Source: Escherichia phage HY01. Taken from it: DNA of 64,000 bases. Under the pieces are notes generated by a model. It was not told where the DNA came from. It was given only the letters and a program-made list of their open reading frames with translations, and ran no database searches. The stretch lies in the sequence record NC_027349.1. One strand, given 5' to 3'. Shown piece after piece: positions 36,788 through 38,190 of the stretch. The position numbers were made by a program, and so were the translations under genes. Positions within the stretch are counted from its first letter, which is position 1. Each line of letters begins with the position of its first letter.

Positions 36788-36863
36788 TGGTCGAGGCAGT
36801 AGGGATCGAACCTACGACCTAGGACTTAGAAGGTCCTTGCTCTTCCTTCTGAGCTATGCCTCG
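36788..36863 (-). tRNA. tRNA-Arg (anticodon UCU)
   Basis: Manual fold of reverse complement: 7-bp acceptor, anticodon loop CUUCUAA, T-loop GGTTCGATCC, encoded CCA. Confidence 0.8.
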
Positions 36864-36867
36864 GATT

Positions 36868-36942
36868 TGGCGGACGTGATAGGATTCGAACCTATAACCA
36901 ATCGCTTAACAGGCGATCGCTCTGCCATTGAGCTACACATCC
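36868..36942 (-). tRNA. tRNA-Asn (anticodon GUU)
   Basis: Manual fold: acceptor GGATGTG/CACGTCC, anticodon stem ATCGC/GCGAT, loop CUGUUAA, T-loop TTCGAAT, CCA. Confidence 0.75.
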
Positions 36943-36946
36943 AAAT

Positions 36947-37033
36947 TGGTGGGGAGTGATGGAGTCGAACCACCCGAGTCGCAATGACAATGGATTTACA
37001 GTCCACACCGCTACCTCTACGGAATAACTCCCC
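36947..37033 (-). tRNA. tRNA-Tyr (anticodon GUA), long variable arm
   Basis: Manual fold: acceptor GGGGAGT/ACTCCCC, anticodon loop CUGUAAA, long variable arm, T-loop TTCGACT, CCA. Confidence 0.7.
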
Positions 37034-37042
37034 AAATTAATT

Positions 37043-37117
37043 TGGTGGCCCTGGGTGGAATTGAACCACCATCTGGCGATTATGAGTCGCTTGCTTGAAC
37101 CTTCCAGCTACAGGGCC
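37043..37117 (-). tRNA. tRNA with anticodon CAU (Ile-lysidine or Met)
   Basis: Manual fold: acceptor GGCCCTG/CAGGGCC, anticodon loop CUCAUAA, CCA; T4 tRNA-Ile also carries a CAU-derived anticodon. Confidence 0.7.
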
Positions 37118-37118
37118 T

Positions 37119-37195
37119 TGGTGCTGATTGACGGAATCGAACCGCCGACCTTCTCATTACAAGTGAGTTGCTCTACCTACTGAGCTAAATCAGCA
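37119..37195 (-). tRNA. tRNA-Thr (anticodon UGU)
   Basis: Manual fold: anticodon loop CUUGUAA, T-loop GGTTCGATTCC, CCA. Confidence 0.75.
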
Positions 37196-37199
37196 AAAC

Positions 37200-37289
37200 T
37201 GGCGGAGGCGATAGGATTCGAACCTATGAGTCGCCGGAGCGACTGCCGGTTTTCAAGACCGGTGCATTAAACCACTCTGCCACGCCTCC
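37200..37289 (-). tRNA. tRNA-Ser (anticodon UGA), long variable arm
   Basis: Manual fold: acceptor GGAGGCG/CGCCTCC, anticodon loop CUUGAAA, long variable arm, CCA. Confidence 0.75.
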
Positions 37290-37295
37290 AAATAT

Positions 37296-37946
37296 TTATA
37301 TATTGTTAATTTGATTTAGAATTCTTTTTGCTTGAGTATGACTTACGCCAATATGCTTAGCATATTTAGATAATTCACCACGCTTAGAAAAATCATATAA
37401 TTTAGAAATTTCTATTCTTCTTTTTCTTTCATCCGCAGAAACTTTTGCTTCGTTTGCTTTTGCTATTTTACGTTTAGCTTCTTGAGAATGAGTTTTACCA
37501 GCAAAGCCATTCTTCATTAATCCATTTGAAGACCATCCTTTTAATTTTCCGTTAGAATGTGCCTTTTTAACACCCAATGAAATTAATTCGCGTTGCTGAT
37601 CTGTCATAGGATAATTATTTATATGGTCCCATCCACCTTCACCTCCAAGTTTTAAATTATACACATCTGGTCTATTTAAAAACTCTTCTGTGACAATATT
37701 TTTCTCGGCTTCAAGCATAGATTCTTTATCATCAAAATACTCTAATATTTCTTTAGAAAAATTTTCTATACCATATTTATCTTGGGCTCTTTTTAATAAT
37801 TTACCAGAACCCATATATCCATCATCTAAATTTTCGGTAGAATGCACACCAATATAAATTTTATTATTAATTTTATTTGTTATTTTATAAAGATAAAAAT
37901 GCATATCAGTCCCTAATAAAGAACTGAGCGTCTCACGACGAGTCAT
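37296..37946 (-). CDS. segB: GIY-YIG homing endonuclease SegB-like
   Basis: 216 aa; GIY-YIG module YLYKITNKINNKIYIGVHS...GYMGSG; embedded in the tRNA cluster, as reported for T4 segB. Confidence 0.8.
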   Translation of the reverse strand: MTRRETLSSLLGTDMHFYLYKITNKINNKIYIGVHSTENLDDGYMGSGKLLKRAQDKYGIENFSKEILEYFDDKESMLEAEKNIVTEEFLNRPDVYNLKLGGEGGWDHINNYPMTDQQRELISLGVKKAHSNGKLKGWSSNGLMKNGFAGKTHSQEAKRKIAKANEAKVSADERKRRIEISKLYDFSKRGELSKYAKHIGVSHTQAKRILNQINNI

Positions 37947-37949
37947 AAA

Positions 37950-38024
37950 TTGGAGCGGATAATGAGAATCGAACTCACATCATCAGATTGGAAGTCTGAG
38001 GTAATGCCATTATACGATATCCGC
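37950..38024 (-). tRNA. tRNA-Gly (anticodon UCC)
   Basis: Manual fold: acceptor GCGGATA/TATCCGC, anticodon stem TCAGA/TCTGA, loop CUUCCAA, CCA. Confidence 0.75.
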
Positions 38025-38029
38025 AAATT

Positions 38030-38118
38030 TGGTGCGAGAAGTGGGACTCGAACCCACAAGGAAATCATTCCGCAGCATTTTAAGTGCTGTGCCTTTACCA
38101 ATTTGACCATTCTCGCGC
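38030..38118 (-). tRNA. tRNA-Leu (anticodon UAA), long variable arm
   Basis: Manual fold: anticodon stem CAGCA/TGCTG, loop CUUAAAA, long variable arm, CCA. Confidence 0.75.
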
Positions 38119-38190
38119 TGGGAATAAAGGACTTGAACCTTTGCATCCTGGAATCAAAATCCAGTGCCTTACCAACTTGGCTAATTCCCA
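38119..38190 (-). tRNA. tRNA-Gln (anticodon UUG); 3' CCA not encoded, directly abuts tRNA-Leu
   Basis: Manual fold: acceptor TGGGAAT/ATTCCCA, anticodon stem CTGGA/TCCAG, loop UUUUGAU; matches the T4 Gln-Leu dimeric precursor arrangement. Confidence 0.75.

Follow-up and report, generated by a model that had tools for sequence, protein, structure and literature searches.

The tRNA array at 36788-38190 of the 64-kb stretch of Escherichia phage HY01 DNA analysed here (NC_027349.1; hereafter the window) raises the question of why its gene set departs from that of T4, with tRNA-Tyr and tRNA-Asn present, tRNA-Pro absent and a GIY-YIG endonuclease gene lying between tRNA-Gly and tRNA-Ser. The reading preferred here, at a probability of roughly 80%, is that HY01 carries a T2L/RB51-type operon which differs from T4 by cassettes, and that a second GIY-YIG gene explains the missing tRNA-Pro.

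Exactly nine tRNAs, all on the minus strand, were called by ARAGORN across the 64-kb window, and the same nine were recovered with Rfam RF00005, both in the order Gln, Leu, Gly, [GIY-YIG ORF], Ser, Thr, CAU-anticodon tRNA, Tyr, Asn and Arg that a preliminary description had obtained by manual folding (Table 1). Eight of the nine score 59-74 bits; tRNA-Tyr scores 29.7 bits against a gathering score of 29, a low-scoring call still backed by its identity to the T2L gene and to the experimentally studied tRNA-Tyr of T6. Minimum free energy folding returned no cloverleaf for the tRNA-Tyr of the window, T2L or T6 alike, and these folds being uninformative, the assignment rests on ARAGORN, Rfam and homology. 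The motif GGTTCRANTCC occurs eight times in the 64 kb, in every case inside the tRNA unit, where 0.18 occurrences would be expected by chance. The terminal CCA is encoded in eight of the nine genes; tRNA-Gln, which has the first C at most, abuts tRNA-Leu with zero spacer, a junction identical to that of T4 and correctly described beforehand. This tRNA-Gln allele differs from those of T4, T2L and T6 at all five anticodon-stem pairs, at positions 32 and 38 and at one T-loop base. Its anticodon arm was considered as a nuclease-evasion allele and the idea dropped, as the allele is present in 313 phage records and thus represents a common dimorphism not specific to HY01.

Table 1. Features of the HY01 tRNA operon in order of transcription (positions in the window).
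Feature	Position	Strand	Basis and closest match
Putative MotA-dependent middle promoter	38260-38284	-	stretch identical to that upstream of T4 tRNA-Gln
tRNA-Gln(UUG)	38117-38190	-	ARAGORN, Rfam; 64/74 identical to T4
tRNA-Leu(UAA), CCA encoded	38030-38116	-	ARAGORN, Rfam; 87/87, identical to T4, T2L, T6
tRNA-Gly(UCC), CCA encoded	37951-38024	-	ARAGORN, Rfam; 73/74 vs T4, T2L, T6
46-nt leader of seg gene	37905-37950	-	T6 segB leader match with one base different
Free-standing GIY-YIG homing-endonuclease gene, 202 aa	37296-37904	-	Pfam, phrog_314
tRNA-Ser(UGA), CCA encoded, T2L-type	37200-37289	-	ARAGORN, Rfam; 89/90 vs T2L
tRNA-Thr(UGU)	37119-37194	-	ARAGORN, Rfam; 73/76 vs T4
CAU-anticodon tRNA, T2L-type	37043-37117	-	75/75, identical to T2L; 47/75 vs T4
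tRNA-Tyr(GUA), class II, long variable arm	36947-37033	-	ARAGORN, Rfam; 85/87 T2L, 84/87 T6
tRNA-Asn(GUU)	36868-36942	-	ARAGORN, Rfam; 75/75, identical to T2L tRNA-Asn
tRNA-Arg(UCU), T2L-type, distinct from T4 tRNA-Arg gene	36788-36863	-	75/76 T2L; 49/76 T4
116-aa ORF within operon, T2L trna.2 / RB51ORF141 homologue	36421-36771	-	94.8% to T2L trna.2
rnaD (species II stable RNA)	36309-36423	-	96.5% to T2L rnaD over 115/116 nt
rnaC (species I stable RNA), tRNA-like T arm	36163-36303	-	97.9% T2L rnaC, 98.6% T4 rnaC
Intrinsic terminator, end of operon	36091-36114	-	10-bp stem, 7 GC pairs, then T run

The CAU-anticodon gene is best read as a tRNA of the Ile2 type, whose product would be lysidine-modified and read AUA. 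Its best E. coli match is an annotated tRNA-Ile with a CAT anticodon, with which it shares an identical 17-nt anticodon arm and, within its acceptor stem (GGCCCTG/CAGGGCC), the pairs C4-G69 and C5-G68. An Ile2-type anticodon arm and these two acceptor pairs are said to have been identified as TilS determinants by Ikeuchi et al. in 2005, and the HY01 gene has the anticodon, the arm and the acceptor pairs of an Ile2 tRNA. The T2L and T6 records name this gene tRNA-Met.

The predicted transcription unit reaches past 36788-38190, with a middle promoter upstream and the 116-aa ORF, rnaD, rnaC and a terminator downstream. Since a sigma-70 consensus scan performed no better than shuffled sequence (9 sites vs 8.5 in shuffles, no excess), the putative promoter was identified instead through its identity to T4; it comprises a MotA box (TGCTTTA, 38284-38278), a 12-nt spacer and a -10 element (TATTAT, 38265-38260), and the middle promoter upstream of T4 tRNA-Gln drives the entire cluster of that phage (PMC2330249). 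The 116-aa ORF matches phrog_3355 (function unknown) and returned no Pfam match, rnaC carries a GGTTCGAATCC motif at 36177-36187, and the terminator is homologous to the sequence that follows rnaC in T4 and T2L. The locus thereby has the anatomy of a T-even tRNA operon, a co-oriented cluster in the slot from e.8 to tRNA.2/57B that starts with abutting Gln and Leu genes and is followed by rnaD, rnaC and an intrinsic terminator; the genes flanking the array correspond to the T4, RB51 and T2L flanks. By T4 sequence identity and published T4 work, a single middle-mode transcript would begin upstream of tRNA-Gln and end at the terminator, spanning the nine tRNAs, the endonuclease mRNA, the small ORF, rnaD and rnaC. 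The tRNAs would be excised by host RNase P and 3′-processing enzymes (T4 literature cited in PMC2330249), with the CCA of tRNA-Gln completed by a host enzyme, and would serve A-ending codons heavily used by this 35%-GC genome (CAA, UUA, GGA, UCA, ACA, AUA and AGA) together with those for Tyr and Asn.

The array is the Tequatrovirus tRNA operon in its T2L/RB51-type form, as found in the deposited sequences of dozens of relatives, and the layout, the tRNAs and the variant endonuclease are all present in public phage genomes. ESh24 and RB51 are annotated with the same gene order, to which RB18 adds tRNA-His. The collection has 372 phage records with a Tyr-Asn-(His)-Arg block, from hosts that include Escherichia, Shigella, Yersinia, Salmonella, Klebsiella and Enterobacter, which makes T4 the outlier; identity to the T2L cluster (AJ880101), described by Brok-Volchanskaya et al. 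in 2008 (PMC2330249), is 98-100% across the CAU, Tyr, Asn and Arg genes. The preliminary description was right that T4 has eight tRNAs and lacks the HY01 arrangement, but within its group the repertoire is nothing out of the ordinary.

The closest record in the collection reaches ~97% identity to the window, and none is identical to it. T2L shares the Gln-Leu-Gly start and the CAU-Tyr-Asn-Arg-trna.2 ORF-rnaD-rnaC end, but keeps tRNA-Pro, is without seg at Gly|Ser, carries the trna.1 ORF where HY01 has tRNA-Thr and possesses a T4-type anticodon arm in tRNA-Gln. Phages of the RB51/RB68/RB18/AR1/ESh24 type show the HY01 gene order, with the variant seg gene at Gly|Ser, and are 96-97.5% identical over 2.2 kb, the RB18 record already remarking ‘C-terminus divergent’; RB18, AR1 and others have one or both of two additions, a tRNA-His gene flanked by Asn and Arg and an ORF located upstream of the array. 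The T4 cluster occupies the same slot, flanked by e.8 and 57B, and shares with that of HY01 the promoter sequence, the abutting Gln and Leu genes, the sequences of Leu and Gly, and both rnaC and the terminator; the catalytic module of SegB is likewise common to the two. In contrast, T4 carries Pro and is without Tyr and Asn. It has segB between its Ile and Arg genes, and neither the leader nor the C-terminal half of that gene is the one found in HY01. Its Ile (47/75) and Arg (49/76) genes are other sequences, and its Ser, Pro and Ile genes lack an encoded CCA. T6 (Chihara et al. 2026, PMC13096335) shares the 46-nt leader, the 5′ half of the seg gene and a tRNA-Tyr identical at 84 of 87 positions, but its segB follows tRNA-Tyr in the Asn slot (Tyr|Arg) and has a T4-type C-terminal half, and Ser, Pro and Asn are missing. 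On the preferred reading, the Ile2-Tyr-Asn-Arg-ORF-rnaD block would be the T2L allele, replaced in T4 and T6 around the segB insertion, and the differences from T4 would be cassette differences and not local adaptation.

A separate proposal is that tRNA-Tyr and tRNA-Asn are kept mainly for counter-defence, as replacements or decoys for host tRNAs cut by tRNA-cleaving immunity, which is plausible if somewhat doubtful as the chief reason. The optional genes at this slot in relatives, Tyr, Asn and His, all have GUN anticodons, the tRNA set targeted by colicin E5-type nucleases. In T6, tRNA-Tyr relieves Septu immunity in a dosage-dependent manner, while T4, without tRNA-Tyr, cannot escape (PMC13096335). 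The HY01 gene is a close homologue: its three differences from T6 are confined to the D arm, the anticodon stem and the T stem, and the variable arm, which Septu cleaves, is identical; by homology it may buffer tRNA-Tyr-cleaving defences such as Septu. Against this, the T6 tRNA-Tyr is itself Septu-cleaved and useful only when amplified, and that amplification, of a tandem tRNA-Tyr+segB unit, is SegB-dependent (PMC13096335); in HY01 the seg gene lies four genes from Tyr, not beside it, which precludes the 718-bp amplicon in the form it takes in T6. Counter-defence is compatible with the operon reading preferred here and does not replace it; both meanings suggested earlier for the array, counter-defence and homing, are reasonable and are backed by earlier published work on the sister phages T4, T2L and T6.

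The embedded seg gene was found to be related to segB in part. Its longest ORF opens at ATG 37946, but the true start is almost certainly the ATG at 37904 (MHFYLYK), since the T4, T6 and RB51 proteins begin there and the leader of a Klebsiella-phage homologue is interrupted by an in-frame stop. The gene had been placed less than 10 nt from both neighbours, which is correct on the tRNA-Ser side (6 nt) and incorrect on the tRNA-Gly side, where the leader intervenes once the start at 37904 is taken. The T6 counterpart of this leader follows tRNA-Tyr, and the leader is also kept in Klebsiella phage KP13MC5-5; it moves together with the seg gene. A leader hairpin at 37906-37927, with a Shine-Dalgarno-like AGGGA in its 3′ arm, was also detected in a stem-loop scan, and the leader fold (-14.1 kcal/mol, z = -1.95) is weakly better than shuffled sequence.

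The encoded protein matches GIY-YIG (PF01541) at 27 bits (cutoff 22.6), NUMOD3 at 20.4 bits and, weakly, HTH_10, and belongs to phrog_314 (homing endonuclease, E = 2e-54). Codons 1-95 constitute a SegB catalytic module, with ~96-202 forming a different DNA-binding module of NUMOD3 and a C-terminal HTH. The match to T4 SegB is a single 117-residue HSP at 83% identity, near-identical until ~residue 108 of the long ORF, and the columns invariant with respect to SegB, window residues 20-108, include the YIG residues mutated in T6 SegB (Y17, G19), as in a SegB-orthologous GIY-YIG catalytic domain. Similarity to T4 SegB beyond that point falls short of significance (second HSP E = 55). The catalytic half is ~98% identical to T4 and T6 SegB, the leader plus 5′ half has ~99% DNA identity to T6, and the DNA breakpoint with segB falls near alignment column 350; in tblastn searches the two C-terminal halves hit distinct groups of records, the window type 54 (>=95%) and the T4 type 67 (>=90%). 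The C-terminal DNA-binding region is therefore not of the T4/T6 type, and the location, Gly|Ser, is not that of SegB (Ile or Tyr | Arg, in the tRNA-Asn slot). With GIY-YIG joined to NUMOD3/HTH and a sporadic presence at a fixed site, the gene has the attributes of an I-TevI-like modular free-standing endonuclease, a type of GIY-YIG enzyme in which the C-terminal domain sets target recognition (PMC2330249, discussion). Searched against the sequences of solved structures, the 202-aa protein had no match at E <= 1, and AlphaFold2 without an alignment (mean pLDDT 53, catalytic half <50) was confident only for the C-terminal helix-turn-helix at ~160-200. No second seg copy was found in the window by tblastn with T4 SegB, which hit one locus only.

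A full-length homologue, 77% identical in amino acids over 201/202 residues, occurs in Jiaodavirus (Klebsiella phages KP13MC5-5 and KEN39), where it has the same leader and lies directly after tRNA-Gly(UCC). Unlike HY01, these phages keep tRNA-Pro, whose 5′ end includes the stop codon of the ORF. Divergence from the HY01 gene is far greater for the catalytic half (dS 2.2) than for the C-terminal one (dS 0.35), and the surrounding array is far larger and of other composition. The HY01 gene is full-length relative to this homologue and is under purifying selection (dN/dS 0.10 in the N-terminal half, 0.32 in the C-terminal half). It is a chimera with sharp breakpoints for which the label segB is half right, the catalytic half matching SegB and the DNA-binding half being unrelated, at a position other than that of T4. 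Database labels vary between segB, segD (AR1) and ‘truncated SegB-like protein’; a literature search on SegB-like proteins returned nothing.

The homing behaviour of T4 SegB itself is established, with cleavage of the T2L tRNA-Asn gene, a preferred 27-bp site mapped wholly inside that gene and a relaxed specificity involving recognition of the tRNA T arm (PMC2330249), and the HY01 tRNA-Asn, 100% identical to the T2L gene, contains that 27-bp site. The HY01 gene could be an ordinary segB orthologue, or a decaying or truncated one, moved within the array and possessing T4 SegB specificity or none, in keeping with its near-identical catalytic half, some of its GenBank labels and the relaxed T-arm specificity of the T4 enzyme. 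This is improbable, given that similarity to T4 SegB ceases where it does, that the protein is full-length against a 202-aa homologue in another genus, that dN/dS is low in both halves, that the C-terminal module is at least 95% conserved in 54 records and that target recognition lies with the C-terminal domain in I-TevI-type enzymes (PMC2330249).

As for tRNA-Pro, neither ARAGORN nor Rfam called one in the 64-kb window, and blastn-short with T4 tRNA-Pro against the whole window returned only chance matches of 10-15 nt and no remnant or pseudogene, bearing out its reported absence alongside the presence of Tyr and Asn; a copy elsewhere in the genome is unlikely, T4-like relatives having all their tRNAs within this one cluster. 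In the phage collection, 82 records have a Gly|seg junction and 448 a seg-less Gly-Pro-Ser junction, the Gly-Pro-Ser segment of the seg-less alleles filling the slot held by seg in HY01. Homology to T4 and T2L ends at ...TCCAATTTA after Gly and restarts at the first base of Ser. In the two Jiaodaviruses, the full-length homologues, which have this leader too, are placed precisely at the junction of tRNA-Gly(UCC) and tRNA-Pro(UGG), and more distant carriers of the C-terminal module are likewise situated in tRNA arrays (T2L trna.1, Erwinia FBB1, Citrobacter Ursula). Loss of tRNA-Pro through host-specific adaptation, by which phage codon usage set against the host tRNA pool brought the gain of Tyr and Asn and the loss of Pro, is improbable too: usage in the window genes does fit a supply of tRNA-Asn and tRNA-Tyr (Asn codons 61 per 1000, Tyr 46 per 1000, A-ending codons dominant; values roughly 1.5-5 times those of E. 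coli codon tables), as had been suggested, but a block so widespread across hosts and so close to T2L is an inherited cassette and not a local gain, and CCA codons, at 13 per 1000, are as enriched as other A-ending codons, so that codon demand leaves the loss of Pro unexplained, its slot being filled precisely by a mobile endonuclease gene.

The arrangement of the junction points instead to invasion of Gly|Pro by the seg gene, with which tRNA-Pro was probably lost. On the preferred reading the operon would contain a second free-standing GIY-YIG gene, built from the SegB leader and catalytic module with a different NUMOD3/HTH module and having a conserved home at Gly|Pro; judged by gene position, its target may be the Gly|Pro junction. 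The invasion would have removed a Pro gene that probably held or adjoined the target site; in that case carriers would escape cleavage by their own enzyme, and relatives with a Pro gene would undergo conversion during mixed infections.

Klebsiella phages keep tRNA-Pro beside the seg gene. Insertion therefore need not delete Pro, and the loss in Tequatrovirus could be a separate event.

Remodelling of the array by endonucleases, proposed in the preliminary description, is supported by the comparative anatomy of the arrays of relatives. A broader proposal can be offered tentatively, at slightly under even odds: that exchange of the DNA-binding module, with the leader and catalytic half left ~99% identical to segB, produced a SegB paralogue of distinct specificity, homing to tRNA-Gly|tRNA-Pro and not to tRNA-Asn; that its spread erased tRNA-Pro from ~50-80 sequenced Tequatroviruses; that the near-identical 5′ halves of the two paralogues act as portable recombination sites which delete or reshuffle tRNA blocks, as in phage OES_C-2, which has tRNA-Gly followed by the leader and N-half fused to a T4-type C-half, with Arg directly after; and that the T-even repertoire is set largely by competing homing endonucleases, not by translational need.

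For the annotation of these phages, the useful outcome is a correction, together with a full-length, selectively maintained endonuclease whose site is conserved across genera; a mildly new point is that the gene labelled ‘segB’ combines the SegB cutting domain with another DNA-binding half and occupies the usual place of tRNA-Pro. If the target is the Gly|Pro junction, the locus would provide a clean natural case of endonuclease retargeting through a module swap, and of a selfish gene deleting a translationally useful tRNA, a deletion that would bear on the turnover of phage tRNA sets and of anti-defence tRNAs.

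Nine tRNA genes, all on the minus strand, were called by ARAGORN in the 64-kb window, in the transcription order Gln(UUG), Leu(UAA), Gly(UCC), Ser(UGA), Thr(UGU), CAU, Tyr(GUA), Asn(GUU), Arg(UCU), and the same nine were recovered independently by the Rfam tRNA model, eight at 59–74 bits and tRNA-Tyr at only 29.7 bits, close to the gathering score of 29. The array and order proposed in the preliminary description are thereby upheld, as is the absence of tRNA-Pro, which ARAGORN did not call in the window and of which a remnant search of the window found no trace. Its contrast with T4 is also real, the eight tRNAs listed there for that phage being exactly the T4 set (Gln-Leu-Gly-Pro-Ser-Thr-Ile-segB-Arg-rnaD-rnaC), but the arrangement itself (Gln-Leu-Gly-seg-Ser-Thr-CAU-Tyr-Asn-Arg-trna.2-like-rnaD-rnaC, where seg is the embedded GIY-YIG gene) is not new, being a T2L/RB51-type allele of the T-even tRNA operon that has been deposited widely: the annotated order is identical in ESh24 and RB51, and RB18 differs by an extra tRNA-His.

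The window belongs to a Tequatrovirus; over 20 kb it shares ∼97% identity with CrRp10, P8 and BMB16 and 94.8% with RB51, and 55 records span at least 80% of the 2.2-kb array region. Phage T2L, whose cluster and its ‘four extra tRNA genes’ have been in print since 2008 (PMC2330249), reads Gln-Leu-Gly-Pro-Ser-trna.1-Met-Tyr-Asn-Arg-trna.2-rnaD-rnaC, and its genes match those of the window closely (CAU 75/75, Asn 75/75, Arg 75/76, Tyr 85/87, Ser 89/90; tRNA-Tyr is 84/87 identical to the experimentally studied T6 gene), whereas the T4 Ile and Arg genes are quite unlike the CAU and Arg genes here (47/75, 49/76). Among phage-collection records with at least 80% query coverage, the Tyr-Asn-(His)-Arg block is found in 372, the Gly-Pro-Ser junction in 448 and the junction of tRNA-Gly with the seg leader in 82; it is therefore T4 that departs from the common state, in which Tyr and Asn are present. 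Many relatives, such as RB18, carry tRNA-His(GUG) between Asn and Arg; Tyr, Asn and His, the genes that vary in this slot, have in common a GUN anticodon of the queuosine family, which may hint at a shared selective pressure. T6 reads Gln-Leu-Gly-Thr-Met/Ile-Tyr-segB-Arg; its annotated tRNA-Thr begins with the tRNA-Pro 5′ acceptor strand (TCCGTG...) and continues as tRNA-Thr. A deletion running from Pro into Thr would account for this fusion by taking out Ser together with the 3′ portion of Pro and the beginning of Thr; the acceptor stem of the product would be unable to pair.

The CAU tRNA is best read as tRNA-Ile2, which reads AUA once modified with lysidine, despite the label Met given to the same gene in the T2L and T6 records; across 5,424 E. 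coli genomes it is matched best by a gene annotated tRNA-Ile (CAT anticodon), with which it shares an identical 17-nt anticodon arm and the acceptor pairs C4-G69 and C5-G68. As first described, tRNA-Gln adjoins tRNA-Leu without a spacer and lacks a complete CCA, encoding at most one C, while the other eight genes encode CCA. Relative to the T4/T2L/T6 allele, tRNA-Gln has compensatory changes at all five anticodon-stem pairs, differs at loop positions 32 and 38 and at one T-loop base, and is otherwise identical; found in 313 phage records, this second allele is a widespread dimorphism.

Features of the tRNA operon in the window and of compared phage sequences
Feature	Sequence	Position	Strand	Remarks
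Putative MotA box TGCTTTA	window	38284–38278	minus	in T4-identical stretch upstream of tRNA-Gln
Putative −10 TATTAT	window	38265–38260	minus	in T4-identical stretch upstream of tRNA-Gln
tRNA array	window	36788–38190	minus	
tRNA-Gln	window	38117–38190	minus	
seg, long ORF	window	37296–37946		216 codons; GIY-YIG domain
seg, very probable start	window	37904		ATG; MHFYLYKITN...
116-codon ORF	window	36421–36771		between tRNA-Arg and rnaD; function unassigned; 94.8% identical to T2L trna.2; phrog_3355
rnaD	window	36309–36423		downstream of 116-codon ORF
rnaC	window	36163–36303		downstream of rnaD
Strong intrinsic terminator	window	36091–36114		after rnaC
35-nt direct repeat	window	35524–35558; 36082–36116		94% identical
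157-aa ORF	window	35563–36036		phrog_2280; function unassigned
tRNA-Pro/Thr fusion	T6 (AP018814, L004)	643–717		annotated tRNA-Thr
trna.1	T2L (L006)	584–985		between tRNA-Ser and tRNA-Met; 32% identity to seg C-terminal half, E = 6e-12
seg homologue	KP13MC5-5 (OP617748, L008)	2216–2824		202 aa
tRNA-His(GUG)	RB18 (L009)	771–846		
tRNA array	OES_C-2 (PQ642263, L011)	1611–2641		

The long ORF of seg fills the Gly–Ser space, yet translation very probably begins at the internal ATG, since the T4, T6 and RB51 proteins begin there, the numbering of the T6 catalytic residues Y17 and G19 starts from it, and in a Klebsiella-phage homologue the upstream extension is interrupted by an in-frame stop. A 46-nt leader, rather than a 4-nt gap, would then follow tRNA-Gly, so that the proposed spacing of under 10 nt holds only towards tRNA-Ser (6 nt). 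The assignment to segB likewise fits one half of the gene: long-ORF residues 15–108 match residues 1–94 of T4 SegB almost exactly, with no detectable similarity to T4 SegB thereafter, and the leader with the first ∼330 nt is ∼99% identical to T6 segB before similarity collapses. The near-identical leader is preceded by tRNA-Tyr in T6 and by tRNA-Gly in the window. The C-terminal half gives a NUMOD3 match at threshold, a weak HTH match and, in an otherwise poor single-sequence AlphaFold model, a confident terminal helix-turn-helix; this module occurs at 95% identity or more in only 54 phage records, and the T4-type C-terminal half at 90% or more in 67. GenBank labels include segB, segD and ‘truncated SegB-like’, with a note of ‘C-terminus divergent’ in RB18; a literature search found no published description of the variant. 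The predicted leader hairpin (−14.1 kcal/mol, z = −1.95) buries a Shine-Dalgarno-like AGGGA, while the unrelated T4 segB leader forms a much stronger one (−19.4 kcal/mol, z = −4.9); both predictions are consistent with translational restraint as proposed for segB.

Klebsiella phage KP13MC5-5 (Jiaodavirus) encodes a GIY-YIG homing-endonuclease homologue, absent from its GenBank annotation, that is 77% identical to seg over its whole length and has the same leader. Given this full-length counterpart, and with dN/dS between the two of 0.10 in the catalytic half and 0.32 in the C-terminal half, the gene is neither truncated nor decaying. The ∼six-fold difference in dS (2.2 against 0.35) indicates that the halves have separate histories and that the 5′ half was recently homogenised with segB inside Tequatrovirus. 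More distant carriers of the C-terminal module also lie within Straboviridae tRNA arrays: in Erwinia phage FBB1 a GIY-YIG gene follows tRNA-Pro, in Citrobacter phage Ursula an ‘HNH endonuclease’ separates Asp from Met, and T2L has trna.1, which lacks a GIY-YIG domain and could be either a remnant or a DNA-binding protein in its own right.

In the two Jiaodaviruses examined, the seg homologue sits exactly between tRNA-Gly(UCC) and tRNA-Pro(UGG), its stop codon falling inside the tRNA-Pro 5′ end. Aligned with the seg-less T4/T2L allele, homology of the window stops at ...TCCAATTTA after tRNA-Gly and restarts at base 1 of tRNA-Ser; leader and seg thus replace precisely the tRNA-Pro segment. This mirrors T6, where segB with the T4-type C-terminal half takes the slot of tRNA-Asn, a gene containing the preferred 27-bp site of SegB (PMC2330249). 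From these observations we infer that the Gly|Pro junction is the homing site of the variant and that its Tequatrovirus carriers lost tRNA-Pro during invasion or afterwards; deletion is not obligatory, given that the Klebsiella phages keep tRNA-Pro beside the homologue.

The suggestion of endonuclease-driven remodelling gains from this replacement and from phage OES_C-2, whose array comprises Gln, Leu, a Gly-like sequence not called as a tRNA by ARAGORN, one seg gene and Arg. That gene joins a window-type leader and catalytic half to a T4-type C-terminal half, apparently the product of recombination between the near-identical 5′ halves of two seg paralogues, which would delete every tRNA gene in between. 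All eight window occurrences of GGTTCRANTCC, which forms the core of the sequence recognised by T4 SegB (PMC2330249), fall in this operon, against 0.18 expected by chance; as its tRNA-Asn carries the mapped preferred site unchanged, HY01 itself should be a recipient for T4/T6-type SegB.

As is usual for T-even phages, the array lies between e.8 and tRNA.2/57B, and the transcription unit exceeds the originally described interval both upstream and downstream. Sequence upstream of tRNA-Gln is identical to that of T4, whose middle promoter for the whole cluster has been placed there (PMC2330249). The 116-codon ORF, missing from T4 and without a Pfam match, is conserved (T2L trna.2/RB51ORF141), its stop overlapping the rnaD start. 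The rnaC terminator is duplicated, as also noted in the RB51 record, and the copies flank the 157-aa ORF, which resembles a small gene cassette that entered at the terminator.

A classical codon-supply role fits the 35% GC genome and the abundance of array-read codons (per 1000: CAA 24.9, UUA 30.5, GGA 22.6, UCA 20.1, ACA 18.2, AUA 13.7, AGA 11.9; Tyr codons 46, Asn codons 61). Set against E. coli values from standard codon tables, CCA (13 per 1000) is as enriched as the other A-ending codons served, so that codon usage supports a non-adaptive loss of tRNA-Pro. A counter-defence role is suggested for tRNA-Tyr by homology with T6; T4, without this tRNA, is unable to escape the tRNA-Tyr-cleaving defence Septu (PMC13096335). 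As seg does not lie beside Tyr, the 718-bp T6-type amplicon cannot form here. The two interpretive ideas of the preliminary description, counter-defence and endonuclease-driven remodelling, have both been taken up in earlier experiments on sister phages. What is left as a somewhat novel lead is the embedded endonuclease, which appears to be a SegB paralogue that has swapped a module and whose conserved home is the Gly|Pro junction; this would most simply explain the absent tRNA-Pro.
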